This document shows, one piece after another, positions 5,454-47,367 of a stretch of 64,000 bases of DNA. The notes under the pieces are model-generated. The model was not told the DNA's origin. It did no database searches and saw only the letters and a list, made by a program, of their open reading frames with translations. The position numbers were made by a program, and so were the translations under genes. The stretch comes from an uncultured Planctomycetaceae bacterium. GTDB lineage: Bacteria > Planctomycetota > Planctomycetia > Gemmatales > Gemmataceae. The stretch spans positions 1,395,868-1,459,867 of the forward strand of contig CAWGKE010000001.1 of assembly GCA_963823075.1 (NCBI GenBank), given 5' to 3'. Position 1 is the first letter of the stretch, and every line of letters begins with the position of its first letter.

Positions 5454-5524
5454 GTTCAGCCGCGACCCGACAGGGGAGCGGGTCTCGATGACGCGCTTTC
5501 CTGTCGGGTCGCGGCTGAACTTTT
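5454..5524. terminator. Rho-independent, bidirectional terminator (21-bp perfect stem plus T-run)
   Basis: GTTCAGCCGCGACCCGACAGG ... CCTGTCGGGTCGCGGCTGAAC followed by TTTT. It lies between convergent genes. Confidence 0.8.
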
Positions 5525-14960: not shown

Positions 14961-15098
14961 TTGTCGTCTTTTCATCCTTGTGCTCCCTTGAAGGAGGTTG
15001 CCGCGCGGGGCGACGCCTTTAATCTCCGGGGTCTGGGAATCGGTTGCTGAGAACGGCCCCTCCCCGGGGGGAGGGGCGAAAGACTCCCCGGCAGGTCG

Positions 15099-15755: not shown

Positions 15756-16367
15756 TTGTCCATTCAGACTTTGGAACTCGCCGTCGTCAAGGTCGGCGGC
15801 AGCCTCTACGATCTGCCCGACCTCGGCCCGCGTCTGCAAGCCTGGCTGCCCCATGTCGGGCCAAACGTCTTGCTTGTTCCGGGCGGCGGCCCGACCGCCG
15901 ACGTGGTGCGCGATTTCGACCGCATCCACCGGCTCGGCGAGGAACGGGCGCACTGGCTGGCCCTCGGCGCCTTGCAGCTCAACGCCCACTTCCTGACGTG
16001 GCTGCTGCCGTCGGCGGCGGTCATCGACCATCCCGAACAGGCGGCCGGCGGCGTCGCCATCCTCAACGCCTTTTCGTTCCTCAGCCGCGAAAAGGCCGCC
16101 TGCCGCAAAGGGCGGCTGCCGCACTGCTGGGCCGTCACCAGCGACGCCATCGCCGCCCGCGCCGCCGTCGTCGCGGGGGCGGCGGAACTCATCCTGCTCA
16201 AGTCCGTCGCCATTCCCGAGGGCATGAGTTGGGAAGAGGCGGCCCGAAGCGGCTTCGTCGATGAGTGGTTCGCGCCGACGCTGCGCGAGGCCACGTCGTC
16301 GTTGCGGGTGCGGGCCGTCAACTTCCGCGAGTGGCAAAAGATACGCCCGTCGGAGCCGCGACCGTAA
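15756..16367 (+). CDS. Amino-acid kinase family protein (Asp/Glu/uridylate kinase fold), probably H4MPT-associated
   Basis: VVKVGGSL glycine-rich kinase motif. TTG start is uncertain. Ends ...SEPRP inside a palindrome. Confidence 0.55.
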   Translation: MSIQTLELAVVKVGGSLYDLPDLGPRLQAWLPHVGPNVLLVPGGGPTADVVRDFDRIHRLGEERAHWLALGALQLNAHFLTWLLPSAAVIDHPEQAAGGVAILNAFSFLSREKAACRKGRLPHCWAVTSDAIAARAAVVAGAAELILLKSVAIPEGMSWEEAARSGFVDEWFAPTLREATSSLRVRAVNFREWQKIRPSEPRP

Positions 16368-16415
16368 GGGAGCGGTTTTCGCTGACACCGCTCCCTTACG
16401 GTCGCGGCTCCGACG
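16348..16415. terminator. 29-bp perfect inverted repeat that holds the stop codons of both convergent genes
   Basis: CGTCGGAGCCGCGACCGTAAGGGAGCGGT / ACCGCTCCCTTACGGTCGCGGCTCCGACG. Because of it, both converging proteins end in the peptide SEPRP. Confidence 0.8.
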
Positions 16416-17136: not shown

Positions 17137-17549
17137 GCCTGCTTCTCCGGCGCGTCATCGACGGTGAAGAAGCGGACGTTGCCGGGGTAGGGACGGAACG
17201 GCAGCGGCCGGGCGTTGGCGAAGACGAATCCGTACAGCCGCGGCAGCTGGAACCACGACGGGTCGTTGAGGTGCTTGGCACGGTCGGCGACGAACAGCTG
17301 CGGCGAGCGGTAGGCGACCACGCCGGTCAGGTCGGCGGCGCCGATCACGCCGCCGGCCAGCTGCGCCGCCGCGCGCAATTCCGGCGGCACCTGCGCCCAC
17401 GCTTCCGGCCGCGGGTCCGGAACGCGAGCGGCGTGGATCAGCACGGGGCCGCGGCGTTTCGTGGCCCAGCGGCGCACCTCGATCGTCTTGCGGCCATGCA
17501 CCAGCAGGGCCGCCCACGGCTGTTTCAGCGACAGAGCGTAATGCGTCAT
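17133..17549 (-). CDS. ASCH domain protein
   Basis: 138 aa. The LKQPWAALLVHGRKTIEVR beta-barrel start is typical of ASCH/PUA-like proteins. Confidence 0.65.
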   Translation of the reverse strand: MTHYALSLKQPWAALLVHGRKTIEVRRWATKRRGPVLIHAARVPDPRPEAWAQVPPELRAAAQLAGGVIGAADLTGVVAYRSPQLFVADRAKHLNDPSWFQLPRLYGFVFANARPLPFRPYPGNVRFFTVDDAPEKQA

Positions 17550-17562
17550 CGCTCAGGAGTCG

Positions 17563-17670
17563 GCAGGGTCAGGGGTCGGGAGGTCAGAGGACCGCATTGC
17601 ATTGTATGCCGGCTGCGTTCGGGCGGCGCCGCTGACCCCTGACCCCTGACTCCTGACCCCTGACTCCTGA
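17563..17670. repeat. Imperfect hairpin with heptamer-repeat stems, (CAGGAGT/CAGGGGT)n versus (TGACCCC/TGACTCC)n
   Basis: Lies directly upstream of the kinase gene. It shares the same repeat unit as the hairpin at 21413-21512. Confidence 0.8.
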
Positions 17671-17805
17671 TTCCCATTTGCGGCCCGCCGCGCCGCAAGC
17701 TATGGTTTGGTGCATAATGTCGGGAGGCCGGCGCACTCCCCCGGTCCAACGTCCGTCCCGTCCCGAGGACGGACGACCCGCGCCCGCGCCCCGCGAGACG
17801 TACTC

Positions 17806-20800
17806 ATGGCGGTCCGGATCGAAAGCCAGGCCGAGCCAATCCCAGGCTATAAGCTCATCGAGCGCCTGGGCGGCGGCGGCTTTGGCGAAGTCTGGAAATG
17901 CGAGGCGCCCGGCGGGCTGCACAAAGCCATCAAGTTCGTCTTCGGCGATCTGTCCGCCGCGGTCTCCGACTCCGTCACCGACCACGGCGACGACGGCCAC
18001 CGCGCCAAGCAGGAACTCAAGGCCCTCAGCCGCGTCAAGACGGTCCGCCATCCCTTCATCCTCTCGCTCGAACGCTACGACATCATCGACGGCCAGCTCA
18101 TCATCGTCATGGAGCTGGCCGACCGCAACCTCTGGGACCGCTTCAAGGAGTGCCGCGCCCGCGGCCTGCCCGGCATCCCGCGCGACGAGCTGCTCGGCTA
18201 CATGGAAGAGGCGGCCGAGGCGCTGGACCTGATGAACAACACGTACCAGCTGCAGCACCTCGACATCAAACCGCAGAACCTCTTCCTCGTCTACCAGCAC
18301 GTCAAGGTGGCCGACTTCGGCCTGGTCAAGGACCTCGAAGGCGTCCAGGCGTCCGTCACCGGCGGCGTCACGCCGGTCTACGCCGCCCCCGAAACCTTCG
18401 ACGGCTGGGTCAGCCGCTTCAGCGATCAATATAGTCTGGCCATCGTCTATCAGGAGCTGCTCACCGGCCGCCGGCCGTTCAACGGCGCCAACGTCCGCCA
18501 GCTGATCGTGCAGCACCTCCAGGCCGCGCCCGACGTCACGCCGCTGCCGCCGGCCGACCAGCCGGCCATCGCCCGGCGCTGGCCAAGAACCCGGACGAGC
18601 GCCACCCGACCTGCCAGGAAATGGTCCAGCTGCTGCGCCGGGCCGGCCGGCCTTCCGACGATGCGCAAGGCCCCTCCGAGCGCTTGCGCGAACCGGCTCG
18701 CCCGGCCGCGCCACTTCCGCCGCTCGACCCGATCCAGACGCTCGAGCGCGACGTTGGGCCGCCCAGCACGTTCCAGGAGGCCGCCACCGCCAGCATCCGT
18801 CGCGGGCCGGCCGACTCCCACCCCGGCCTGACGCTCTCCATCCGCGCCCTCGAAGGGGCCGTCCTCCAGGAGTCCGTCGCCTCGATCCGCAAGGCCCCGA
18901 CGGAGGTGCGCGGCGACGGCGCCCTGTTCCCCGCGCTGATCGTCGGCGTCGGCGCCGTGGGCATGACCGTTTTGCAGCGGCTGCGCGAGAGCCTGCATCG
19001 CCGCTTCGGCTCCGTGTCCCAGGCGCCGCACCTCCGCCTGCTGCTGCTCGACACCGACCCCGAGGTGGTGCGCTCGGCGACGGCCGGCCGGCCGGGCGCC
19101 GCCCTGGCCGGCGGCGACGTGCTGCTGACGCCGCTCAACCGGCCCAGCTACTACCTCCGGCCGCGCGACGGCCGGCCCAAGCTCGACGGCTGGCTCAACC
19201 CGCGGATGCTCTACCGCATCCCGCGCTCGCAGGTGACGACCGGCGTGCGGGCCCTGGGCCGCCTCGCCTTCTGCGACAACTACCGCGCCATCGTCCGCCG
19301 CCTCCAGACGGAGTTGGACGCCTGCCTGGAACCGAACGCCCTGCCGGGCGCCGCCCGCCAGTCGGGCCTCGGCCTCCGCACCAATCGGCCGCGCGTCTAC
19401 GTCGTCGCCAACCTGGCGGGCGGCACCGGCGGCGGCGTCTTCCTCGACCTGGCCTACACGCTCCGCGCCATGCTCCGCCAGATGGGCTACGCCCAGCCCG
19501 ACGTGGTCGGCCTCTTGCTGCTGCCGCCCGTGGACCGCCACCGCACTCGCGTCCTGCCGCTCGGCAACGCCTGCGCCGCCCTCACCGAATTGATCCATTA
19601 TTCCTCGCCCAAATCCGTCTTCACGGCCCGCTACCACGAGCGCGAGGCGCCGGTGCAGGACCCCGACCCGCCGTTCAGCCGCTGCTTCTTGCTGCAGATG
19701 CCGGACGAGGCCGACGAGACGGCGACGCGCGAGCTGGTCGATTCGGCCGGTCAGTTCCTCCACCGCGACCTCTGCTCGCCCCTGGGCCAGGCGGCCGACC
19801 TGGGCCGGGCCGGCCTGTCGGGGCCGCCGTGGGACCAGCGCGGCATGTTCTACCAGACGTTCGGCCTGTATCACCTGGCCTGGCCGCGGCACGCGCTGCT
19901 GCGCGAGGCCGGCCGCCGCCTCTGCCAGCGTCTCTTGCAGCGCTGGATAAGCAAGGACAGCAAGCCGCTGCGCGAGGCGGTGCAGGTTTGGGTCCAGGAA
20001 CAGTGGGCGCACCACGAGATGGGCGCCGACGCGATGATCGGCCGGCTGCGCGACGCTTGCCAGGACTTCCTGCGCCAGGCCCCCGAGGACGCCTTCGCCG
20101 CGATCGTCGAGCCGCTGGCCCGCTATCATGCGGCGGCCGGACGGGCCGGATCGCGTCCGCGCCCGGACGCGCCCCTCCCTCCCAACCCTCCCCCCGCGGG
20201 TGGGGGAGGGCAGGGTGGAGGGGCCCCCGACGCGGCGGCGGTGCTGGCGGAGCTGGAGGAGATGTTCGGCAGCCCGCGCGAGGAGGGCATGGGCGAGAAC
20301 GCCGGCGCCCTGGTGCGCCGGCTGCGCGAGGCGTCCGAGGAGGCGGTCGCCGATTGGGGGCAAAAGCTCGCGGAAATATCCGTTCATCTGATCGAGGAGC
20401 CGGAGTACCGGCTGGCCGGCGCCGAGGAGGCGGTGCGTCAGGTGGTGGCGACGATCGAGCAGATCCTGCAACGGCACGAGCCGCTGGGCGCGAGCTGGCG
20501 GCGAAGGCCGCGGAGGGGCACGCCCGGTTGCAGGCGGCGCTCGCGCCGGCGAAGCCCGGCGCCCGGCGCCCGGTCCTGCCGCCCGCCGAGGTCGCGGAAC
20601 TGCTGCGCGCCTACCCGAAATGGCGTTTCCAGAGCCTGGTAATGCAGCAGGCGTCGGCCGCGTTTTTGAGCCTGCGCGGCCACCTGTCCGACGAGCTGCG
20701 GGAAATCAACTTCTGCCGCGTGCGCCTGGCCGAGCTGCAACGGCTGCTGGAGGCGCCGTCCGACGCGGCCGAGACGGAAGCCCGGGCCGGCCGGCTCGTG

Positions 20801-21409
20801 CTGCCGGCGGGGTGCAAGGACATGGCGCAGGCCGTGGACGGCTTCCTGGCCGGCGTGACGCCGGAGGCGCTCTTGGAGCTGGACGTGCGGACGCAGACCG
20901 TCATCCGCGGGCAGTTCGTCGCGCTGGTCCACGTCTGCCTGGCCAGCGCCAACCTGCTGAAGAACGTCGAGACGGCGATGGTGGAGACGGCCCAGGCGTT
21001 CGCCGGCGAGCTGTTGGGCGAGACCAACGCGGCGGAGCTGTTCCTGCAACAGCACCCCGACCAGGAGGAGGCCATGGACGAGGCGGCGTCCTTCTTCAAC
21101 GAGGCCCATCCCGAGCTGGCGCCCGCCAAGGCCGCCCCCGCGTCCGAGATCTGCGTCCTGGCCGCGCCGCCGGGGCCGGCCGGCGACCGCTTCCGCGAGC
21201 TGACGCGAACCGCCCTGCCCGACGTCGAGTTCGCGCCGGCCGCCAGCGAGGACGACATCCTGTTTTACCGCGAGGTTTCCCATCTGCCGCTGGCCGAGCT
21301 GGAACAGCTCGGCCCGGCCGGCCTCGACGCCTACCGCCAGATGAGCGCCGCCGAGGACTTCACGCCGCACACTCGCATCGACGTGGACTTCGGCGCCCCT
21401 TCCCGCTGA
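17806..21409 (+). CDS. Ser/Thr protein kinase fused to a large C-terminal region that includes a tubulin/FtsZ-like GTPase domain. At least two frameshifts, near 18575 and 20480
   Basis: Kinase motifs GGGGFGEVWK, AIK, HLDIKPQNLF and ADFGL. The APE/ALAKNPDERHPT end of the kinase continues in the next frame after a missing G in CCCGGG near 18575. Downstream motifs are FtsZ-like: LIVGVGAVGMTVLQRL (T1-like) and VVANLAGGTGGGVFLDLAY (matching the tubulin signature [SAG]GGTG[SA]G). There is a third frame switch near 20480. Confidence 0.65.
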
Positions 21410-21412
21410 ATT

Positions 21413-21512
21413 CAGGAGTCAGGAGTCAGGAGCGGCAGCCGTGGCGTCCAAGGCGTCCGACGGCAGCTGACCCTATACAATTCCCTACTGACTCCTGACT
21501 CCTGACTCCTGA
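21413..21512. repeat. Hairpin whose stems are tandem heptamers, (CAGGAGT)3 and (TGACTCC)3
   Basis: Left arm 21413-21441 and right arm 21489-21512. It sits between the kinase stop and the M16 peptidase start. Confidence 0.85.
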
Positions 21513-21529
21513 TTGGAGAGGATGCTCCC

Positions 21530-24289
21530 ATGTCCCGATTGCTCCGCTCGCGTCTCGTCTGGACGCTTCTCGTGCTGGCGCCCGCCGCCCTGCTGACGAT
21601 GGCCCGCGCCGACGCCCCGAAGGAGGCGCCCGCCGAGGACGCCGCCCTCAAGGCCGCCTCCGCCCTCTACGACGGCGTTCGCGTCGAGACCCTCGACAAC
21701 GGCCTCAAGGTCTATCTCAAGCCGGTGCCCAAGTCGCCCGTCGTCACCACCATGGTCGCCTACAAGGTCGGCTCGGCCGACGAGGACCTCGACCACACCG
21801 GCCTGTCGCACTACCTCGAACATCTCATGTTCAAGGGCACCGACAAGATCCTGCCCGGCGACATCGACCGCATCACCTTCCGCAACGGCGGCGCCAATAA
21901 CGCCTATACCGATACGGATTACACCATATTCCACTTCGACTTCCCCTACGACCGCTGGGAGGCGGCCCTGGAGATCGAGGCCGACCGGATGCGCAACCTG
22001 CGCATCGACGACAAACACGAGTTCCAGCAGGAGAAGGGCGCCGTCATCAACGAGCTGCAGCGCGACGAGGACGAGCCGTGGGACCTGGAGGAGAAAACGA
22101 TCCTGCCGGCCCTGTTCGGCGCGGACGGCCCGTACGGCCATCCGGTCATCGGCCTGAAACAGCAGGTCCGCGACGCCACCGCCGAGGTCATCAAGGCCCA
22201 CTACGACAAGTGGTACCACCCCAACAACGCCTCGCTCGTCGTCTGCGGCGGCTTCGACCCCGACATGGCGCTGGCGAAGATCAAAGAGCTGTTCGGCCCC
22301 ATCCCGAAGGCGGAATTGCCGGAGCGCAAAAGGCTTTCGAGGGAGCAGCCGAAGCGGCCCGAGCGGGTCGCGATGGACTCGAAGTTCGCCGTGCCGCGGA
22401 TGCTGATGACCTGGAACACGGTGGACAGCAAGAGCGACGACTACCCGGCCCTGACCGTGCTGGAGGCGCTGTTGAACGGTCGCACCAGCCGGCTCTACAA
22501 GAAGCTGATCGAGGGCGAACAGGTCGCCTCGTCCGTCTCCGCCAGCCACAACGCCGGCCGCTACCCCGGCTGGTTCGAGATCGACCTGGAGCTGTACGAC
22601 AAGAAGGACGGCGACCGCACGGAGAAGCTGGTGCTGGACGAGCTGAAGAAGCTGGCCGACCAGCCGGTTTCGGACGCCGAGCTGGCGCGGGTGCGGCGGC
22701 AGCTTGTGGCCGGCGCCGTGTTCGGCCGCGAGAGCGTCCACGCCCTGGCCGACAGCATCGCCAAGGGCGTCACCACCAACGACCTCGACTGGCTCAAGAC
22801 CGTGCTGCCGCGCATGTTGGCCGTCACGCCCGCCGACCTCCAGCGCGTCGTCAAGACCTATCTCGATCCGGAAAAGCGCGTGGTCTTGTGGTCGGTCCCC
22901 AAGGGTGAAGGGGCGAGCGGCCGGCGTGAGCCGGCTGATGGGGTCTATCAGCCGGCTCACGCCGGCCGCTCGTCGCGCACCGCCGCGGTCGGCGGCGACT
23001 TCCCGCTCCAGGACGTGAAGCGCGTCGAGCTGCCCAACGGCCTGACGCTGCTCCTCTACGAGGACCACCGCCTGCCGATCATCACCGCCCAGGCGGAGCT
23101 GCACCGCGTCAACGCTTATGAGACGGACGACAAGCTCGGCGTGTCGGCGCTGACCGGCCTTCTGTTGCAGGAGTCCTCGAAGAAGCACAGCGGCCCGGAA
23201 ATCGCCGACCTGATCGAGGGCGTCGGCGGCTCGCTGGAGCTGGGCGCCGGCGGCGGCACGGTGCGCGTGCTGGCGCCGGATCGCTCGCTGGGCCTGGGGC
23301 TGCTGTTCGAGTGCCTGACGCAGCCGGCCTTCGCCAAGGAGGACTTCATGCGCCAGCAGCAGATTCTGCTCTCGACGCTCAAGGACATGGAGACGCAGCC
23401 GGAGTCGATGGCCGAGCGCACCTTCCAGGCGATGGTCTACGGCAAGCACCCGCGCGGCCGGCCGGCGATGGGCACGGTCAAGACGGTGGAGGCGCTGACG
23501 CCGGCCGACTGCGCCGCCTTCCATGAGAAGGTGTTCACGCCGTCCAACGTGACGCTGGCGATCGTCGGCGACTTCGACGCCAAGGAGGCGACGGAGGAGA
23601 TCGCAAAGCTGACGGCCGACTGGAAGAAGACGGACCTGGAAACGCCGCAATATCCGAAGGTGGAGATGCCCAAGGAGTTCACGCAGAAGATCATCTCCAT
23701 GCCGGAGTCGGCCCAGCTGCATTTCTACATCGGCCACGTCGGCGTCCGGCGCGACAACCCGGACTATTACAAGCTGCTGGTGATGGACTACGTTTTGGGC
23801 GTCGGCCCCGGCTTCACGGATCGGCTGTCGGCCCGGCTGCGCGACCGCGAGGGCCTGGCCTACACGGTGCGCGGCACGATCACGGGGTCGGCGGACCTGG
23901 AGCCGGGCGCGTTCACCGGCTACATCGGCACGGACAGCGACAATTTCGACCGCGTAAAGAAGGAGTTCCTGGAGGAGCTGAACCGCATCCGCGACACGGC
24001 GCCCAAGCCGCAGGAGGTGGAGGACGCGAAGACGTATCTGGTCGGCAGCCAGAGCCTGCGTTTTTCGACCTCGGCGGAGGTGGCCGGCCAGATGCTGTAC
24101 GTGGACCGCTACCACCTCGGCGCCGACTACCTGAGCGACTATCGCAAGGCGGTGATGGCGGTGACGCCGGAGGACGTGCAGGCCGTGGCGAAGAAGTACC
24201 TGGACCCGGACCACATGGTGATCGTGGCGGCCGGCGCCGTGGACGCGACGGGCAAGCCGACGAACAAGCTGCCGGCGCCGAAGCCGTGA
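21530..24289 (+). CDS. M16-family zinc metallopeptidase (pitrilysin/insulinase-like) with two tandem M16 units
   Basis: Signal peptide. Inverted zinc motif HYLEHLMFKGT (HxxEH). 919 aa, with a second inactive-type M16 repeat. Confidence 0.85.
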   Translation: MSRLLRSRLVWTLLVLAPAALLTMARADAPKEAPAEDAALKAASALYDGVRVETLDNGLKVYLKPVPKSPVVTTMVAYKVGSADEDLDHTGLSHYLEHLMFKGTDKILPGDIDRITFRNGGANNAYTDTDYTIFHFDFPYDRWEAALEIEADRMRNLRIDDKHEFQQEKGAVINELQRDEDEPWDLEEKTILPALFGADGPYGHPVIGLKQQVRDATAEVIKAHYDKWYHPNNASLVVCGGFDPDMALAKIKELFGPIPKAELPERKRLSREQPKRPERVAMDSKFAVPRMLMTWNTVDSKSDDYPALTVLEALLNGRTSRLYKKLIEGEQVASSVSASHNAGRYPGWFEIDLELYDKKDGDRTEKLVLDELKKLADQPVSDAELARVRRQLVAGAVFGRESVHALADSIAKGVTTNDLDWLKTVLPRMLAVTPADLQRVVKTYLDPEKRVVLWSVPKGEGASGRREPADGVYQPAHAGRSSRTAAVGGDFPLQDVKRVELPNGLTLLLYEDHRLPIITAQAELHRVNAYETDDKLGVSALTGLLLQESSKKHSGPEIADLIEGVGGSLELGAGGGTVRVLAPDRSLGLGLLFECLTQPAFAKEDFMRQQQILLSTLKDMETQPESMAERTFQAMVYGKHPRGRPAMGTVKTVEALTPADCAAFHEKVFTPSNVTLAIVGDFDAKEATEEIAKLTADWKKTDLETPQYPKVEMPKEFTQKIISMPESAQLHFYIGHVGVRRDNPDYYKLLVMDYVLGVGPGFTDRLSARLRDREGLAYTVRGTITGSADLEPGAFTGYIGTDSDNFDRVKKEFLEELNRIRDTAPKPQEVEDAKTYLVGSQSLRFSTSAEVAGQMLYVDRYHLGADYLSDYRKAVMAVTPEDVQAVAKKYLDPDHMVIVAAGAVDATGKPTNKLPAPKP

Positions 24290-24309
24290 CCGCGACCGCC
24301 CACTCCGTT

Positions 24310-24367
24310 TAGCCGCTCTTCGCAGAAGAGCGCGTCCGCGACGCGCTCTTCTGCGAAGAGCGGCTAA
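24310..24367. terminator. 25-bp perfect palindrome terminator
   Basis: TAGCCGCTCTTCGCAGAAGAGCGCG / CGCGCTCTTCTGCGAAGAGCGGCTA, just after the peptidase stop. Confidence 0.75.
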
Positions 24368-24447
24368 CCGAGTCGGAGCAAAACCGACGTTGCGGCCGCC
24401 CTCGAAAGACGGTATCTCCCCACCGGAATCCGCTCGGGGGAGAAACG

Positions 24448-25451
24448 ATGCGTCATTCGTGGCTGCTTTTCGCGGCGGTGCTGGTCCCAAGTCCGACGTG
24501 GTGCGCGGTCGGCCGGGCCGCGCTGGAGGGCGATCCGCCGGCGTTCGACGCCGGGACCGTCCACGCCGGCGCACCGCTGTCGCACCGCTTCGTCCTGTCA
24601 AATCGCGGATCGGAAATCGTAGAAATCATCGAAACCCGACCGAGTTGCGGCTGCGCGACGGCGACGCCGGATCGGCGGCGATTCGCGCCGGGCGAAACGG
24701 GATCGCTGCTGCTGGCGGTCAACACGCTGACGCGCCGGACGGCCCCTCGTCGTGGGGCGTGACGCTGCGCTGCCGCTGCGGCGACCGCGTCGAGGAGACG
24801 ACGCTGACGCTGACGGCGCACGTGCGGGCCGACCTGTCGCTGGAGCCGTCGGCCTTGGTCGTCGAGACGGCCGGGGCGGTGGACCGTACCATCACGCTGA
24901 CCGACCGGCGGCAAGCGGCGATGAGCGTCAAGGTGGAGACGACGTGCCCGCAGGTGCGGGCGTCGGTGGACGCGCCGACCCCCCCTCCCAACCCTCCCCC
25001 CGCGGGTGGGGGAGGGCGGGGGTGGACATATGCGATCCATCTGGAGGCGCCGGCCGACCTGCCCGAGGGCCGGTACGACGAGACGCTGCATCTCTACACA
25101 TCCGACCCGGAATATCCTGATTTGAAGCTGCCGTTCACAATCGTGAAGCACGGCCGCCAGCGCGTGAGCGCGACGCCGGCGGCGGTGGAACTGACGGCCG
25201 CCTCGCCGTCGCGGCTGGTGCTGCTGCGGGGCGGCGAGGGCGACGGCGACGAGGTGGAGATCGGCGGCGTGGACGCGGACGCGGCGGTGCGGTGCGAGTG
25301 GACGCCGGGCCCGCGGCCGACGGCGGCGGTGCGGCTGCGTCTCGACGCCGCGAAGCTGCCGGCCGACGGAGTGAAAACGGTCGTGCATGTCCATCTCATC
25401 AAGCCGGCGGAGCAGACGGTGGACGTGCCGGTGACGTGGGGGCCGCGGTGA
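24448..25451 (+). CDS. DUF1573-domain secreted protein (frameshift near 24735)
   Basis: Signal peptide, then the DUF1573 pattern FDAGTV..G....RFVLSNRGSEIVEIIETRPSCGCA. The ORF continues in the +1 frame (24390 frame) after LAVNTLT. It contains the 34-nt GC palindrome at 24984-25017. Confidence 0.6.
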
Positions 25452-27058: not shown

Positions 27059-27226
27059 GAGCAGCGCTTCCGTGGCCAGGCGGGGAGGCGGGCGTCCTTC
27101 GCATTGGCGCCATTATAGGGACGGCGGCAGGCTCCGGGGATCGTCTGGAAACCAGAGAAGCGCCGGCGAGGGATTCGGACGGAATCCCTTGCCGGCGCTT
27201 GGGGCGGGTCGTCGAACGATGGTCAT

Positions 27227-27941
27227 TCCGGCGGGGCGGGGATGGGGGAGCCGATCGGCTCGGCCCGCGTGAAATCCACGTCGGTTCGCTCGTTGGAGTG
27301 GACGATCACAGTGCGCGTCTGATCGACCACCTTGCCGTTCGCCTTCCAGCGGGCGCGGATCTCGTACTGATAGTTGCGGCCGACGGGCAGGGTCGGCGTG
27401 ACGAACTCGCGCTGCTCGCCCTTCTGCTGGGTCGCGTCGCCGTTGAACCAGACCTCGGCGTCGGCGGGGACGACGACGCCGACCGCGGCCGTGCCGTCGG
27501 GCGGAGGGGGCTGTCCGGGTTGTTGCGGCGCCGGGCCCCGTCGTCCGGGCTGCCGCTGGAGTAGAGGGCCGCCGACGGCGCGGGGTAGGCGTAGGCCGGC
27601 GCGACGTAGGCGGGGCTGTAGTAGGCGCTGAGGCCGGGGTAGACGCCAAGGCTGCCGAAGTAGCCCGGAGCGTAGCCGCCGTAGTAGCGGCCGTAATACC
27701 CCGAGCGGTAGCCGCCGCCGTAGTAGCCCGAATGATAGCCGCTGTAATACCCGGAGTGGTAGCCGCCGGCGTAGCCGCCGTGGTAGCCGCCGCCGGCGTA
27801 GCCGCCGTGGTAGCCGCCGCCGGCGCCGCCGTGGTTGCCGCCTCCCTGGGCGGGCGCGGCGAGGGCCGACCCAACGGGCAAGCCGAGCAGGGCCGCCGTC
27901 AGCGTTGCGACCATCGGGGCGAAAAAGCGTGATCCGGACAT
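27227..27941 (-). CDS. Secreted Gly/Tyr-rich protein with a C-terminal TIGR03000 (planctomycete) domain (frameshift near 27550)
   Basis: Signal peptide, then GGYHGGYAGGYHSGYY repeats. The third minus-strand frame encodes AEVWFNGDATQQKGEQREFVTPTLPVGRNYQYEIRARWKANGKVVDQTRTVIVHSNERTDVDF, a TIGR03000-like sequence, and ends at the TGA at 27227. Confidence 0.6.
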
Positions 27942-39467: not shown

Positions 39468-40069
39468 TCATTTCGCCTGGCGTGACAGTCGCTTTTCCAG
39501 CAGCGTTTTGACCTTGCCGCGCATGGTCTGGAAGTAGCAGAGGCTGGCCCGGAGCGACTGCTTGAGGTCGGCCAAGGTGTCGAACAGCCGGTTGTGCGTC
39601 GCCCGTCGCCGCAGCTTCTTCCAGAAACGCTCGATCGGGTTCAACGGGGGGCTATAACTGGGCAGACGCTTGAACTTCAGATGCGGGTACTCCGCCAGCG
39701 CCTGGTCCACCGGCTTGCCCCGGCGCCACGGCGCGGTGTCGATCCGCAGCACCACTTCCGGGTGCTTGTCCCGCGGGTACACCCGACCGACGTGGCGCAG
39801 GTGGTCCGCGAACGCCTCTTGCAGGCGCCGCGTCTTGCTCTGGCCCGTCCTCTTCTGGGCGGCCTTGGGGCTTTCCAGGGTGTTGCTGTGGACCGCCGCG
39901 CTGAGCAGGTTCACCACGGCGAAGACGTAGAGCAGGTCCTTGCAGTCGCGCGTCCCGACCGTCGGCCGGTGTCCTTTGACCCCCCGCGTTGCACCCAGCG
40001 TTGGCGCCATCGGGAAGCGGGCCTCGTCCTGACTCAGCAAGACGATTTCACCCGCCGTCGCTTTTTTTC
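39468..40069 (-). pseudogene. IS630-family transposase DDE-domain fragment (3' part of a copy split by later insertions)
   Basis: YSPPLNPIERFWKKLRRRA motif. The N-terminal residues of the annotated ORF read through the TIR of the adjacent intact IS630. It pairs with orfA at 41480-41992. Confidence 0.7.
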
Positions 40070-41239
40070 CTAGTGCAGGGCCAAGCAAGGTCTTGCCTGT
40101 GCGCAGCTGGAAGCGAACAATGAGGTATGAAACCACCCATCTTTGTTCGCACGCTCAGCGCCGCCGAACGGCTGCGGTTGCAGGCGGGGCGGCGCGCTGC
40201 CGACGCCTTTACCGTCCGCCGTTGCCAGATTCTCCTGGCCAGCGCCGCCGGTCTGCGGCCGCCGCAGATCGCCCGCAACTTGGGCTGCGCCGCGCGCACC
40301 GTTCACTACGCCCTGCACGCCTTCCGGCGCGAGGGACTGGACTGTCTCCAGGAGAAATCCTCTCGGCCGCATTCGGCCCGGCCGTTCCTGGACCAACGCC
40401 ACGCCGACGCCCTGAAGGACCTGCTGCATCACAGTCCCCGTCTGTTCGGCAAACCCACCGGCCTGTGGACCCTGGAGCTGCTCGCCGAGGTCTGCCACGG
40501 CAAGGGCTGGACCCCCCGGCGACTCAGCGGCGAAGCCGTTCGCCTGGCCCTGAAACGCCTGAACATCGGCTGGCGGCGTGCCAAGCACTGGATCACCAGC
40601 CCCGACCCGGCCTACGCGCGAAAGAAAGAAGCCCGCGATCGCTTGATCCGTCTGGTCGAGAGTCACCCGGACTGGGTCTTGGGTTTCCGGGACGAGACCT
40701 GGTGGAGCCGCCTCGCCCTGCCGCGTTGTCGCGCCTGGACCGGCGCCGAACCGCTCCGCCTGGTGGAACGGAACACCGACCGCACCGATCCGGACCCCAA
40801 GGCGCTGTGCTGCTACGGCTTGCTGCGGCAGGACACGGACCAGATGCTGCTGCGTTTCGTCGAGGGTCGGCCGGTGAGTCAGGTCACCGAGGACTACCTG
40901 GCCTGGGTGTGCGAGCAGCTGGCTGCGGAGGGCAAGAAGGCGCTGCTGCTGGTCTGGGACAACGCCTCCTGGCACGCCAGTAAGCGGGTGCGGTCCTGGA
41001 TCAAGGATCACAACCGACGGGCCAAGGCGGAGGGTGGGGTGCGGATCCTCGCCTGCCCGTTGCCGATCAAGGCGCCGTGGCTCAACGCGATCGAGCCGAA
41101 GTGGGTCCACGGCAAGAAGGCCATCGTGGAGCCGGATCGGAAGCTGACGGCGCAGGAGACCAAGGAGCGCGTCTGTCTGTATTACGGCTGCGAGCAAGTG
41201 GAACCCCTTGAGCAAAAGGCCGCTTGATCCTGCACTAGG
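40069..41239 (+). mobile_element. IS630-family insertion sequence, apparently intact
   Basis: TIRs CCTAGTGCAGGGCC... at 40069 and ...GATCCTGCACTAGG at 41239. It carries a 366-aa transposase. Inserted after a T7 run. Confidence 0.8.
40127..41227 (+). CDS. IS630-family transposase
   Basis: N-terminal HTH/wHTH. DDE region DETWWS...WDNASWH...LPIKAPWLNAIE. Confidence 0.85.
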   Translation: MKPPIFVRTLSAAERLRLQAGRRAADAFTVRRCQILLASAAGLRPPQIARNLGCAARTVHYALHAFRREGLDCLQEKSSRPHSARPFLDQRHADALKDLLHHSPRLFGKPTGLWTLELLAEVCHGKGWTPRRLSGEAVRLALKRLNIGWRRAKHWITSPDPAYARKKEARDRLIRLVESHPDWVLGFRDETWWSRLALPRCRAWTGAEPLRLVERNTDRTDPDPKALCCYGLLRQDTDQMLLRFVEGRPVSQVTEDYLAWVCEQLAAEGKKALLLVWDNASWHASKRVRSWIKDHNRRAKAEGGVRILACPLPIKAPWLNAIEPKWVHGKKAIVEPDRKLTAQETKERVCLYYGCEQVEPLEQKAA

Positions 41240-41483
41240 ATGGCAAACTTAACTTGAGAGGCCCCGAAAACGGCCTGTTCTTGAACTGGGCGGCCCAGGA
41301 AAACGCCAGAAATCGCTTGTCCGCCGAGGGTCTCAAGTTGAGTTTGCCGTCCTAGTTTTTTCCTAGGATGGCAAACTTAACTTGAGAGGCCCCGAAAACG
41401 GCCTGTTCTTGAACTGGGCGGCCCAGGAAAACGCCAGAAATCGCTTGTCCGCCGAGGGTCTCAAGTTGAGTTTGCCGTCCTAG
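41236..41483. mobile_element. Tandem pair of ~120-bp palindromic MITEs (TIR CTAGGAYGGCAAACTTAACTTGAGA)
   Basis: Copies at 41236-41355 and 41363-41483, each internally inverted-repeat and separated by a T-run. Two more copies at 43096-43340. Confidence 0.85.
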
Positions 41484-41992
41484 TTTTTTTTTAACTCGGC
41501 AATGTCTTGGCGGGCTTGGGCTTGTTTCTCGGGGTTGCCGCGCAGGTAGCGGTAGGTCGGGCGATACAGGCGGATATCGATCTTGGCACAGAAACGCTGC
41601 ACGGCGCTGCGGGATGTCTGGATGCCTCTGGTCTTGAGCAGATAGTCGGCCAACTCCTCATGGGTCCAGTTGACCCGGTCCAGACCGCACGCGGCCGGCC
41701 CGTTGATGACCCAGCGTTTGACCTCGCCGGCCAGGTGGGTCGGGATTTTGGCTGGCGCCCCCTTCGGTTTGCGGGGGCGCAGACCGTCCAGACCCCGATC
41801 GAGGTAGACGTTGAGCCAGCGTTGGACGGTGCGTGGGGTGATGGCCAGGTCCTGGGCGATGTCCTGGTGGGGTCGATGGCGGCAGGCCAAGCGGATGATG
41901 GGGATGCGATCGCGGTACTTCGGGTCGGTCTCGTGGCGGAAGGCCTGGTCGAGACGTTGGCTTTCCTCCTGGGGCAGTCGGATGCGAATCAC
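41480..41992 (-). pseudogene. IS630-family transposase N-terminal (HTH) fragment, truncated by the MITE insertion
   Basis: 170 aa, homologous to the N-terminal half of the intact IS630 transposase. The stop TAG lies within the MITE TIR. Confidence 0.7.
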
Positions 41993-42080
41993 GTCAGGTC
42001 TGGTTCCTCCTTCGGGTCACTCGACCCCATTCATTCTACGCAACCAGACAAGCCTATCGGGTTTGTGTATCAGTAGAAAG

Positions 42081-42168
42081 CGGAGAGGGAGGGATTCGAA
42101 CCCTCGGTAGACTTGTCGTCCTCACCGGTTTTCGAGACCGGCCCGATCGGCCGCTCCGGCACCTCTCC
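42081..42168 (-). tRNA. tRNA-Ser(CGA)
   Basis: Acceptor GGAGAGG/CCTCTCC. Anticodon loop CTCGAAA. Long variable arm. T-arm GAGGGTTCGAATCCCTC. Confidence 0.8.
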
Positions 42169-42521
42169 GAGAAACCGCACAAACCCGTCCTCCCCCGCAT
42201 TCTAGCAGCCCAGCCCCCTGCCGACAATTTCCCCTCCTCCCCGCCGCTTGCATCCGGCTCGAAGGACGTGGGACAGGATTCCGATCCTGTCCGGTTGGGT
42301 CAGGATTGGAATCCTGACCCACGGCCCAATAGTGTTCGGCACGGCGTTTGAGAGGGACGTAAGTGGCGATCCCCCCGTGGTTAACGGCAAATGAGCGGGT
42401 GAGCCTCGACCAATTGTTCCAATGGGCACCCATCAGCGCAACTCTCAATTGCCATTAGACTTATGCGCTTCCTCAAATCGTGTGCCGAACACTATTGCCC
42501 ACGGCCCCATGTCGTGCTCCT

Positions 42522-43906
42522 AAGCAAGTACGCAAAAGTGTTTTGACAAAGTTCATTTGAGCCAGAAGGTGTCGCTGAACACGCCGGACGTATGCAGAGC
42601 CTCTTGGTTCGACAAGCCGCCCAGGTAGTCGAGGAAGCGGTTCACCTGTTCCTCGATCGGCTCGTATTGCTTGTTGGCGCTGATCACGTCCTTGCCCTGG
42701 CCCCACAGCGTATCCATCGGGTTCAACTCCGGGGACCTCTTGGGCAGCCACAGCAGCGTCATCCCCTCCGCCTTGGCCAGCGATGCCTTGGCCGTGTGGC
42801 TGCGATTCTCATCCACGAGCATGGCCACGTGCCAGCCCCGGTAACGCCCGCGTACTTCCTCCAGGAACGCCTGGAAGTCGATGCTCTGCCCCTTCGCCCT
42901 CGGCAGGAAGAGCCGCGCCCCGGTGCGCAGGTTCATCGCCCCGAAGACGACCCGCCGCGCGTTCCAGCCGCTCAGCAGCACCGGCGCGGTTTCCCCTCGC
43001 CGCGCCCACCCCGCCCGCAGAGGCGGGAAGAGCAGCAGGTCGGTTTCGTCCTGGGCCAGCACCACGCTTCGCCTGGGCAAGGCCAGGATCTGCCGCTTGA
43101 TCCGCCGTTTTTTTCTAGGACGGCAAACTTAACTTGAGACCCCGGCGGAAAAGCGATTTCTGGCGTTTTCCTGGGCGGCCCAGTCAAGAAAAGGCCGTTT
43201 TCCCGGGGCTCTCAAGTTAAGTTTGCCATCCTAGTTTTTTTCTAGGATGGCAAACTTAACTTGAGACCCCGGCGGACAAGCGATTTCTGGCGTTTTCCTG
43301 GGCCGCCCAGTAAGAACAGGCCGTTTTCGGGGCCTCTCAAGTTGAGTTTGCCGTCCTAGTTTTTTCTCGCGCAGCGGGTCCGGCGCGAGGGCGTAACGCG
43401 GCCGCTTCCAAACGAAGTCCCACTCGGCCAGCTGCCGGCGGATGGTGTCGCAGGAGGCCTCCCGGCTCGTGGCGACGGCCAGGGCCTCGCGGAGCAGCGG
43501 CGCCGTCCAGCTTACGTGGGGGAAGCCGACGTCCGGGGGGGAGCAGTCCAGCAGCGACTCCAGCAGTTCCAGGTCGTCCTCGTCCAGCAGTCGGGGTCGC
43601 CCGGGGCGTTCGCCCTCCGCAAGAGTATCGGGCGGAGGCGTCGTGGCGAAGGCGGCCAGCCAGTTGTGGACCGTCTGGCGGGTCACGCCGAGCATCCGGG
43701 CGATGTCGGCGGCAGACCGGCCTTGGTCGAATTCGAGAACGGCCAGAGTGCGGCGGAAGAGGCGAACGTCGCAGGCCTCCCGCAGCTGTCGCCGCAATCG
43801 CCGCCGTTGCCAGGATGTCAGATGGAGTCGATCCATGGTACTTCCCCCTCTACCCGAGAGGATACCAATAAACCGGGTGTCAAATTACTTTTGCGTACCT
43901 GCTTAC
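42522..43906 (-). mobile_element. IS630-family element whose transposase gene is split by a tandem MITE pair
   Basis: TIRs AAGCA(A/G)GTACGCAAAAGT..TTTGAC at both ends. orfA 43380-43836 (HTH) and orfB 42553-43080 (DDE: SQDE.., LPKRSPELNPMD) are separated by the MITEs at 43096-43340. Confidence 0.7.
43096..43340. mobile_element. Tandem pair of ~120-bp palindromic MITEs (same family as 41236-41483, opposite orientation)
   Basis: Copies at 43096-43215 and 43223-43340, flanked and separated by T-runs. Confidence 0.85.
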
Positions 43907-44819: not shown

Positions 44820-46318
44820 TATTACAGCGCAGGGCGCTTTGCTCTTCTACGCGAAGGGAGAAAACGGTACAAGACGAACTCCTTCGCCCGCAGTCCGCCG
44901 TAGGAGGGACCGTTCATGGACGGGCAACAATTGCGGGCGCTCAAGCCTGAGTTGGATCGTTTTTTGGACCGGTACGCGCCCCTGTTCGGCCGTGACGAGA
45001 ATCAGGCCCATGCACGCCGCTTCGTTCAAGGACTGCTGCACAAGGGTGAACGTCGCAACATCGAGAACATCGCCGAGGCTCTCGACGGCGGTCCCGTGCG
45101 TTCCTTGCAGGCGTTTGTGACCACCGGCGCCTGGCACGACCAGGCCCTGCTGGCCGAGTTGCGCCGGGACGTGCTGGCGGTTCTCGCGGACGAGGACGCC
45201 GTCTGGAACTCGGACGAGACCGGCTTCCCCAAGAAGGGCGCCAAGTCGGTGGGGGTCAAGCGGCAATACTCCGGCACGCTCGGTCGCACGGATAATTGTC
45301 AGATCGGCGTGTTCGCCAACTACTGCTCGTCCAAGGGGCACACCTTCATGGACCGCCGCTTATTCCTGCCGGAGGAGTGGGCCGACGACGCGGGGCGACG
45401 CGCCGAGGCGGGCGTCCCCGAGGACGTGCTCTTTCGCACCAAACCAGCGTTGGCGCTGGAGATGGCAGCCAGGCCGTCGCCGAAGGCATCCCCTTCCGCT
45501 GGGTCGGCGGCGACAGTGTCTACGGCGACAACCCGACCTTCGTGCAGGGCGTGCGTGCGTTGGGCAAGTGGTATGTGTTGGACATCGCCTGCGACACGCG
45601 GGTATGGACCGAGCCACCCCAGGTCATCCCGGCGGCAGAGCGGCCGCGTCCGCGGCGTGGCCGTCCACCCACCACGCCGTTGGTGGTCGGCGAGCGGCGA
45701 CGTGTGGACGAGATCGCGGCGGCCCTTGCCGGCGACGGCCTGGCGACGCGTCGTCGTGGGCGAAGGCAGTCAGGGGCCGCGAATGTACGAATACGCTGAG
45801 GTGGCCGTGTGGTTGTGTGAGGACGAGTTGCCGGGACCGCCCGAGCGTTTGTTGGTGCGGCGTTCGCTGGGGCAGTCGGCGGAGTGGAAGTACCACCGCG
45901 CTCACGCGGCGGCGACCGTGTCGCTGGAGAAGCTGGCGCAGGTGCGTGGCACGCGCTGGACGATCGAGGAAGACATCCAGTGTGGCAAGGGGGAGTGTGG
46001 CCTGGACGAGTACGAGACGCGTGGCTGGGTGGGCTGGCACCATCACACGGCGTTGTCGCTGTTGGCGTTGGCGTTCTTGGTGCTCCAGAAGCAGCGGTTG
46101 GGGGAAAAAAAGAGCCGCAGATGACCGTCCCGGAAGTGCGCGCGTTGCTGACGCATCTGCTGGAAGTGCGCGTGTGGGACGACGACGACATCCTGGGGTG
46201 GTCGGAGTGGCGGCGCGAACGCAACCGCCGGGCCTCGGAAAGTCATCGCAAGCGGCGGCTCGCCGAACTGCGGCCGCCGCGAAGTAAGAAAAAGAAGCCT
46301 GCGCTGTAATATTAGTTC
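44820..46318 (+). mobile_element. IS701-family insertion sequence; transposase carries three frameshifts
   Basis: TIRs TAGTATTACAGCGCAGG / CCTGCGCTGTAATATTAG. Transposase 44916-46309 with RQYSGTLGRTDNCQIGVF and WTIEEDIQCGKGECGLDEY. Frame switches near 45470 and 45740, and at the A7 run near 46115. Confidence 0.75.
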
Positions 46319-47238: not shown

Positions 47239-47367
47239 GGGAGCGGTCCTCCAGGTGTCCCGGCGAACGGCCGGCGCGAGCCGGCGGGTGCGTCCCTCCG
47301 TCTGAGGCCCTATGCTATGCCAGCCGCCTCACGCCGGCCGTTCGCCGGGGACTTCGCCTTCGGCGCC

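Follow-up and report, generated by a model that had tools for sequence, protein, structure and literature searches.

A 64,000-nucleotide (nt) stretch of DNA from an uncultured Planctomycetaceae bacterium (contig CAWGKE010000001.1; the whole stretch is referred to here as the window) carries, inside two unrelated genes, two copies of a short palindrome. Both copies are very probably secondary insertions of a short, discrete, imperfect palindromic repeat that persists in genes after selection. They share a 34-mer (CCTCCCAACCCTCCCCCCGCGGGTGGGGGAGGGC) that occurs exactly twice in the window, both times on the + strand, at positions 20178 to 20211 and 24984 to 25017; an earlier, sequence-only reading of the same DNA had located this repeat with the second start exact and the first start one base too low (20177). 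No further match was found in the window with up to three mismatches tolerated. The chance expectation for such a repeat was zero, and none of 100 dinucleotide-preserving shuffles contained a match with three mismatches permitted, which bears out the assertion of that reading that the repeat is more than chance. The start coordinate of each copy is a multiple of three, and translation of the open reading frames (ORFs) at 18621 to 20642 and 24390 to 25451 confirmed that both copies are read in the same frame, as PPNPPPAGGGG. As predicted, each also contains a core hairpin with a 9-bp stem (CCCTCCCCC/GGGGGAGGG) and a 7-nt loop (CGCGGGT), which is identical in the two copies (+ strand, 20186 to 20210 in copy 1 and 24992 to 25016 in copy 2).

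Measured against sites at which the element is absent, the 34-mer turned out to be part of a larger unit. Copy 1, inside a Ser/Thr kinase-Tubulin_2 fusion gene, spans 49 nt (20174 to 20222, + strand; CCTCCCTCCCAACCCTCCCCCCGCGGGTGGGGGAGGGCAGGGTGGAGGG) and encodes ...LPPNPPPAGGGGQGGG... in a variable linker C-terminal to the Tubulin_2 domain. Copy 2, inside a gene for a DUF1573 protein, spans 44 nt (24978 to 25021, + strand; ACCCCCCCTCCCAACCCTCCCCCCGCGGGTGGGGGAGGGCGGGG) and encodes ...TPPPNPPPAGGGGRG... in a loop of that protein. Contig L010 (ENA ERZ25039465) is syntenic with positions 17164 to 25451 of the window at 90 to 94% nucleotide identity over the aligned blocks (∼94% around the site of copy 1 and 92.6% in the DUF1573 gene) and is without both copies. 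At the kinase-tubulin site, L010 has 13 nt (GCCCGAGTCGCCC) and a further contig, L011, has another 13 nt (net gain in the window, 36 nt), and at the DUF1573 site L010 has 20 nt of native sequence (CCCCGCCCCGCCGGCGGCCC; net gain, 24 nt). A third filled/empty pair, compared at the DNA level in MutS genes, had an element of ∼50 nt in place of ∼17 nt of native sequence (net gain, 33 nt), with no duplication. An nhmmer profile of 21 family copies recovered both window copies (20172 to 20222, E = 1.7e-13; 24977 to 25027, E = 3.1e-13) and no family copy in L010 or L011; neither this profile nor a hairpin scan found more diverged copies in the window beyond these two.

The same picture emerged from protein alignments. 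Among 119 listed homologues of the kinase-tubulin protein, LPPNPPPAGGGGQGGG was confined to the window and P0060 (96% identical), 118 of the 119 being without it, and orthologues at 81 to 84% identity ran through the insert site with no interruption. The DUF1573 insert was found only in the window, P0001, P0002, and P0027; about 20 other aligned orthologues read DAP-xxxxDGxW. On the nucleotide level, the element was present at this same site in contigs L133 (98% identity) and L132 (86% identity). In MutS it was present in P0163, P0165 (85% identity), and P0167 (84% identity) and absent from P0164 (88% identity) and six further orthologues at 81 to 86% identity. An ancestral coding segment would be expected to recur in orthologues as the same peptide at the same place with divergent nucleotides, but this was not observed, since close relatives were without the segment. 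The proposal of a small palindromic insertion element, rather than chance or ancestral coding sequence, is thus supported by its absence from close relatives and by recurrence of the core in genes that are unrelated to one another, in either orientation and four frames (see below). Together, these alignments argue strongly that both copies entered preexisting genes.

The sequence-only reading had suggested a search for target-site duplications, but none was found at any of the three filled/empty pairs (kinase-tubulin, DUF1573, and MutS); instead, 13 to 20 nt of the target was replaced. Short direct repeats flanking the window copies (GACGCG and GGTGGAC) were considered as candidate duplications and rejected, because the empty sites of L010 and L011 have them as well and they are therefore native. 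The replaced native segments were GC-rich linkers coding for Pro, Gly, and Ala. At all three compared sites the 5' junction was GCGCC|, and GGACGCGCC precedes both window copies; the GCGCC| junction was not seen among the other ∼18 copies, so that a target motif is an unconfirmed lead. None of the copy lengths (44, 49, and ∼50 nt) is divisible by 3, yet all of the net length changes are (+36, +24/+30, and +33). It thus appears that selection acts as a filter for preservation of the frame: as had been proposed, the surviving events are in frame, but not through the length of the element itself, the frame being kept by the net change after loss of target bases.

The 25-nt core had nine exact matches among 185,579 species-representative genomes, all in three metagenome-assembled genomes (MAGs) labeled Gemmataceae or Planctomycetaceae (five in MFD09286.bin.1.1, two in CTOTU41487, and two in SMAG_U14588). 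Metagenome contigs yielded 12 more core matches, two of which duplicated earlier sites. Including the window, this gave about 21 distinct core sites, all of them in Gemmataceae or Planctomycetaceae MAGs or in unlabeled metagenome contigs, and at the level of sequence these sites establish a dispersed family. The carrier lineage is uncultured soil Gemmataceae; no similar sequence was found in E. coli genomes. The family consensus comprises ∼52 to 56 nt and can be written as C6-8 TCCCT nn CCCTCCCCC CGCGGGT GGGGGAGGG nn GGGGTGGGGG. When copies from ∼20 unrelated sites were aligned on their loops, they had sharp common ends (left, C6-8 TCCCT; right, GGG(G)[T/A]GGGGG), and the asymmetry of the CGCGGGT loop was conserved across copies. 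Hence, a unit of ∼52 to 56 nt is being copied. The window copies fall into a subfamily with an "AA" left bulge, which is common to L008, L132, L136, and L137, and are also alike in a C[A/G]GGG right side; the full 34-mer recurs in L137, in a different gene. No account of this element was found in the literature on palindromic repeats of Gemmata or Planctomycetes, on Rickettsia palindromic elements (RPEs) in Planctomycetes, or on repetitive extragenic palindromic (REP) sequences of Azospirillum.

Long ORFs with coding-type codon-position GC content contain at least 19 of the 21 sites. High coding density in genomes of this kind would predict about this share of intragenic copies, and if that expectation holds, insertion does not avoid genes. 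Both orientations are represented among the copies, and four of the six frames are used, giving PPPAGGGG at seven sites, PPPPAGGG at four, LPHPRGEGREGG at seven, and LPSPTRGGR at one; the remaining two frames, PSPRGWGR and LPPRVGE, were not used at any site. The use of both orientations and four frames marks the element, as judged from its sequence, as a DNA-level entity and not a conserved peptide. All six frames of the family consensus are free of stop codons. Frame use was nonuniform (p ∼0.01), a bias compatible with selection acting on the encoded peptide.

Pfam searches identified the interrupted genes as those for an aspartate kinase (insert at residue 453, downstream of an ACT domain), two Hsp70-family proteins (one of them carrying two copies side by side), MutS (insert between domains I and II), an S9-like peptidase, and a GH94-type protein, in addition to the two hosts in the window. 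In an AlphaFold2 model of P0001 (mean predicted local distance difference test [pLDDT] score, 88), the residue block holding the DUF1573 insert was predicted to form coil (pLDDT 60) between strands at residues 171 to 174 and 195 to 203, so that the insert is modeled, with low confidence, as part of a surface loop. Among orthologues, the linker that contains the kinase-tubulin site is rich in insertions and deletions. In addition to these sites, more distant Gemmataceae had other Pro/Gly-rich inserts in the loop between MutS domains I and II (P0179, P0192, P0199, P0243, and P0263; e.g., PHPQPLSPAGRGAGVRG and FPSPLGGGEGRVRG), which suggests that this loop has been repeatedly colonized by related hairpin families. 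The aspartate kinase on L001 (CAWFBG010000023.1) has a second Pro/Gly-rich insert (HDPTPRPSPPGEEGEGVRGNGD) in its kinase domain (∼L001:1798-1840), with a weak profile match (E = 0.09). In an Hsp70 gene at L005:3050-3138 (DAIPWT010000088.1), two inner hairpins with CGCGGGT-type and CTTGC-type loops share one outer stem and are read as PHPNPPPQGGREQDPNPPPPAGGGQGGG, representing either a nested or a tandem insertion.

Folding of 86-nt stretches around each copy revealed a two-tier hairpin, in which an outer stem (CCCCTCC.../...GGAGGGG) encloses, across a small bulge, the inner stem of 9 bp with its loop. The extended hairpin of copy 1 had a DNA folding energy of −23.2 kcal/mol (z = −2.8). The right outer arm of copy 2 is 6 nt shorter than in L132, and this copy was no more stably folded than its shuffles (z = 0.1). 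Both copies have G-rich halves that fit the canonical G-quadruplex (G4) pattern (G4Hunter scores, +1.86 and +2.55), mirrored by the C-rich halves (−2.58 and −2.92), and the capacity for G4 and i-motif formation that had been attributed to the repeat is consistent with these patterns. Of the five canonical + strand G4 motifs in the whole window, two belong to these elements, as do two of its five C-rich mirror motifs. Searches against Rfam returned no family at gathering score and only subthreshold matches to generic hairpins (microRNA precursors and Pab91) at both copies. Features of an intrinsic terminator were likewise not found: neither copy is followed by a T-run, and the surrounding ORFs extend for another 139 and 143 codons.

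In the explanation that we favor, the element, which resembles selfish DNA, would land or be copied regardless of coding status and would persist within genes for three reasons: it is stop free in all six frames, it encodes flexible Pro/Gly-rich peptides that may be tolerated in surface loops and interdomain linkers, and only events with a net change that is a multiple of three would survive selection. The unit may be mobile now or have been so recently, and its sharp ends would point to a trans-acting, hairpin-recognizing activity or to hairpin-primed break repair. Homologous recombination would then carry element-bearing alleles from one related lineage to another. This explanation does without a host function. 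The evidence supports the identity of the element well; the manner of its movement is what we infer.

The spread of alleles is suggested by the DUF1573 gene. Presence at this site is not tree-like, since L132 (86% identity) has the element with a fuller right arm and L010 (92.6% identity) is without it. Positions at which the window agrees with L132 and not with L010 are clustered: of 32 such positions in ∼960 alignment columns, 8 lie within 50 columns just 3' of copy 2. This tract beside copy 2 suggests homologous recombination as a further route for the spread of element-bearing alleles; two separate insertions at one site, in two lineages, were set aside as the less simple account. For the recombination or homing target that the sequence-only reading had offered as an alternative, no specific evidence was found.

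Several observations weigh against a mobile repeat of this kind. Its apparent copy number is low, with at most five exact cores per MAG and two copies per 64-kb window, although counting exact cores underestimates diverged copies. Presence and absence are not tree-like at either the DUF1573 or the MutS site, and part of the spread may thus be allelic recombination and not transposition. No mobilizing gene was identified: the window ORFs tested gave only IS630-like DDE_3 and DDE_5 transposases, and enzymes of these types are expected to leave target duplications, none of which was present at element sites. Replacement of target bases is also unlike classical cut-and-paste transposition or insertion of the IS200/IS605 type. 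Compensatory covariation was not detected in the outer stem, where native pairs of left and right arms folded no better than swapped pairs (permutation p = 0.81); there is therefore no covariation support for a selected hairpin structure. Finally, a host function, as a structural pause site or a G-quadruplex, is still conceivable.

A tentative alternative, which concerns the mechanism and not the identity of the element, dispenses with a dedicated enzyme: template switching or ectopic gene conversion among hairpin-forming C-run/G-run sequences would generate new copies, and homologous recombination of whole alleles would then distribute them. The replacement of 13 to 20 nt without duplication at all three filled/empty pairs is as this account would have it, and the replaced Pro/Gly/Ala-coding linkers were themselves GC rich. 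It also accommodates the recombination-like tract flanking copy 2, the patchy presence in MutS and DUF1573 among close relatives, and the failure to find a transposase. What it does not obviously explain is that the ends are sharp and the same at ∼20 unrelated sites, since microhomology-driven switching would be ragged, and the conserved asymmetry of the CGCGGGT loop likewise indicates that a unit is copied.

Hairpins of similar build were found outside the Gemmataceae. A degenerate CCCTCCCCC-N3-9-GGGGGAGGG pattern matched at least 120 IMG/VR contigs with GC contents of 34 to 74%; among the matches listed, about one-third had part of the outer stems, which the pattern did not impose, and about a dozen had both arms. 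On the lower-GC contigs, the hairpins were outside long ORFs. In PLSDB, the hairpin consensus occurred at 391 places on 58 replicons, 44 of which belonged to Azospirillum, with up to 30 places each. Nearly all of these places had no annotated gene beneath them, with one hairpin in A. lipoferum located 19 nt after the pobA stop codon and one in A. oryzae within the last codons of xdhB. On two phage-like IMG/VR contigs (L017:6850-9205 and L060:671-1882), hairpins with the same inner stem occupied gaps between structural genes, among them the gap immediately behind the major capsid gene, as would be expected for a terminator or mRNA stabilizer. Between paired copies on multicopy phage contigs, a search for a mobilizing gene found only capsid and tail genes.

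The repeats of Azospirillum, Rhizobium, Sinorhizobium, and the phage contigs resemble the element in their order of parts (CCCCC[T/A]CCC, 2 to 3 nt, CCCTCCCCC, loop, GGGGGAGGG, 2 to 3 nt, GGG[A/T]GGGGG), and copy 1 folds exactly into this two-tier structure (compare the Azospirillum copies L148, L149, and L150). Unlike the element, they have loops such as GCAAGC, GCTTGC, and others and are mostly intergenic. The window element itself had no blastn match in PLSDB, its stems being of low complexity and the loops differing. The link is thus architectural, and homology is unproven. We regard it as rather unlikely that the element and its look-alikes form one horizontally spreading superfamily, which would move by recognition of the hairpin or of G4/i-motif structure, with short target deletion and no duplication. 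If this were true, the coding-neutral build of the element (stop free in six frames, with Pro/Gly output) would let it colonize genes where intergenic space is scarce.

The positions of these look-alikes after phage capsid genes and after Azospirillum pobA, which resemble those of terminators or stabilizers, could also be taken to indicate that a hairpin, G4, or i-motif has been selected by the host at domain boundaries, as a translational pause, for mRNA stability, or as a recombination or replication signal, with coding fit being secondary. Insertion at loops and domain junctions (MutS domains I/II, beside ACT domains, and in an Hsp70 loop) and the strong G4 and i-motif signatures would suit such a role. 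Nevertheless, we consider it improbable: the nearest relatives manage well with the same sites empty, the host genes are unrelated, compensatory covariation was not seen, and copy 2, with part of its outer arm gone, is no more stably folded than shuffled sequence. Moreover, positions in loops are equally expected from purifying selection on random insertions.

A purely local origin, in which ectopic gene conversion copied the linker of one gene to the other over a distance of 4.8 kb and no family exists, would account for the subfamily signature that the two copies have in common ("AA" left bulge and C[A/G]GGG right side) and for the native GGACGCGCC preceding both; it is contradicted by the same core at ∼19 other sites in other genes and genomes and by the full 34-mer in a different gene of L137, and is very improbable. 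Least credible of all is ancestral or convergent coding of low-complexity Pro/Gly linkers, or an artifact of long-read assembly in homopolymer-rich DNA: the host regions are variable linkers and the window assembly has indel-type frameshifts, but the identity is one of nucleotides across frames and orientations, the closest orthologues are without the segment, the same DUF1573 site is filled in the independent Joint Genome Institute (JGI) contig L132, and the element is found in assemblies whose contig names (NODE_, k141_) are of the type that we take to come from short-read assemblers, so that this account is contradicted as well.

Both host genes in the window are interrupted by apparent frameshifts in the assembly, at ∼18.6 to 18.8 kb, ∼20.52 kb, and ∼24735. 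The kinase-tubulin gene (17707 to 21409, + strand) accordingly extends over three frames (17707 to 18831, 18621 to ∼20515, and ∼20520 to 21409). Pfam matches to Pkinase (4e-27, ORF 17707 to 18831) and Tubulin_2 (2e-39, ORF 18621 to 20642), together with orthologues that are single Pkinase plus Tubulin_2 proteins of 1170 to 1200 amino acids, agree with its earlier description as a kinase fusion. The DUF1573 gene (24448 to 25451, + strand), also correctly named, starts at an ATG at 24448 and passes through a 1-nt gap near 24735 into the frame of the ORF at 24390 to 25451; its orthologues carry DUF1573 (PF07610) or PF22544. The shift at ∼24735 amounts to one G absent relative to the JGI contig L132, and L010 and L133 have the same gap; their record names (contig_N, _np1212) are of a kind that suggests assembly from long reads. 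The shift is therefore probably a systematic assembly error and does not mark a pseudogene. Tandem heptamer repeats (TGACCCC/TGACTCC) lie at 17614 to 17688 and 21463 to 21509, just 5' of the kinase-tubulin gene and an M16 peptidase gene, respectively.

The window contains further palindromes and repeats. The M16 peptidase ORF (21530 to 24289) includes an unrelated palindrome with a perfect 29-bp stem (GGCGAGCGGCCGGCGTGAGCCGGCTGAT/ATCAGCCGGCTCACGCCGGCCGCTCG) at 22912 to 22975, which is read in frame and folds as DNA with −47.3 kcal/mol (z = −11). It is common to L010, whereas L011 has a different, nonpalindromic linker there; a palindrome related to it is located at 47269 to 47339. Near-perfect long intergenic palindromes with arms of 29 to 31 bp are present at 254 to 322, 5454 to 5520, 16348 to 16415, and 24306 to 24370, the last of which is in the spacer between the M16 and DUF1573 genes and has a fold z of −10.5. 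These intergenic palindromes look like a REP-like family apart from the C/G element. A simple palindrome at 15056 to 15077 (GCCCCTCCCC GG GGGGAGGGGC), in a stretch without a coding-type ORF according to our ORF filter, is possibly related to the C/G element as a minimal form. The IS630-like transposase genes and fragments (helix-turn-helix plus DDE_3) are clustered at 39471 to 43378 (39471 to 40154, − strand; 40127 to 41227, + strand; 41483 to 42016, − strand; 42556 to 43128, − strand) and framed by 128-nt tandem repeats (41235 to 41490) and inverted copies at 43107 to 43378, and the DDE_5 transposase gene is at 44916 to 46124. An ORF on the − strand at 27113 to 27874 consists of 12-nt periodic repeats, with units such as GCCGCCGTAGTA on the + strand, which suggests a repetitive low-complexity protein.

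Several known repeat systems share traits with the element. RPEs, reported by Ogata et al. in 2000 and summarized in a later account (PMC10969869), measure ∼100 to 150 bp and each encode a conserved peptide, with ∼44 copies reported in the alphaproteobacterium R. conorii. They resemble the element in being palindromic, located in frame in many unrelated and often housekeeping genes, translated, and compatible with folding of the host protein, with some copies being intergenic. Residence in frame within several unrelated genes thus applies to the element too (∼19 of 21 sites), but a length of ∼100 to 150 bp and a conserved peptide of 30 to 50 amino acids in one frame do not (44 to 56 nt, four frames). 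Set against the descriptions of RPEs, the element is further distinguished by its C-runs and G-runs, an output of 15 to 18 Pro/Gly residues, the use of at least four frames, an apparently low copy number, and its occurrence in Planctomycetota. RPEs are AT rich, and similarity to a C-run/G-run element is unlikely.

Intragenic REPs of the GTAG/CGTC type have been described in Opitutus terrae, a member of the Planctomycetes-Verrucomicrobia-Chlamydiae (PVC) superphylum, and in R. conorii, including copies in uvrA and uvrB (Di Nocera et al. 2013, PMC3733652). Like the element, REPs are short, GC-rich, imperfect palindromes that are dispersed, occur in the PVC superphylum, and are sometimes found in DNA repair genes (uvrA/uvrB there, MutS here); CGTC REPs, like the element, have no known transposase. 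Inspection of either end of ∼20 oriented copies revealed no constant GTAG or CGTC tag, and only L006 has CGTC nearby. While REPs are mainly extragenic and of high copy number, the element is mostly intragenic, with no more than five exact cores per MAG, and it is a longer unit with two stems and a bulge. We know of no association of the element with RAYT genes.

[quoted passage not shown] The element resembles them as a small nonautonomous repeat able to fuse in frame. MITEs, in contrast, have terminal inverted repeats from a parent insertion sequence and a target-site duplication, while the element is a single hairpin, without duplication in the three pairs and with loss of target bases. Cod-2, reported from another organism in a survey of stem-loops (Petrillo et al. 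2008, PMC2267715), is a small repeat read in different frames, which we liken to the element by description only. In mitochondrial genes of Nematomorpha, coding palindromes occur as perfect inverted repeats of up to 284 bp (PMC6649704); they, too, are hairpin-forming inverted repeats within coding sequence with both arms translated, but they are long, belong to animal mitochondria, and do not form a dispersed family of shared sequence. Altogether, the element works like RPEs, intragenic REPs, and Cod-2 and departs from the defining traits of RPEs (length and a single peptide), REPs (tag and extragenic location), and MITEs (target-site duplication).

In-frame colonization of genes, best known from Rickettsia and a few intragenic REPs, is thereby extended to free-living Planctomycetota with large genomes. 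The planctomycete element is much smaller, made of C-runs and G-runs, and unrelated in sequence, its relation to RPEs being judged by description. Proteins such as MutS, Hsp70, and aspartate kinase acquire Pro/Gly loop insertions from this element, and because its presence and absence are not tree-like, annotation, alignment, and phylogeny can be misled by it. It also puts hairpin-, G-quadruplex-, and i-motif-capable sequence inside mRNAs. The signature of filled and empty sites, with no duplication, a short loss of target, and sharp ends, is unlike standard models of transposition. Together with the look-alikes of Alphaproteobacteria and phages, the element provides a system for asking how REP-like hairpins without a known transposase multiply.

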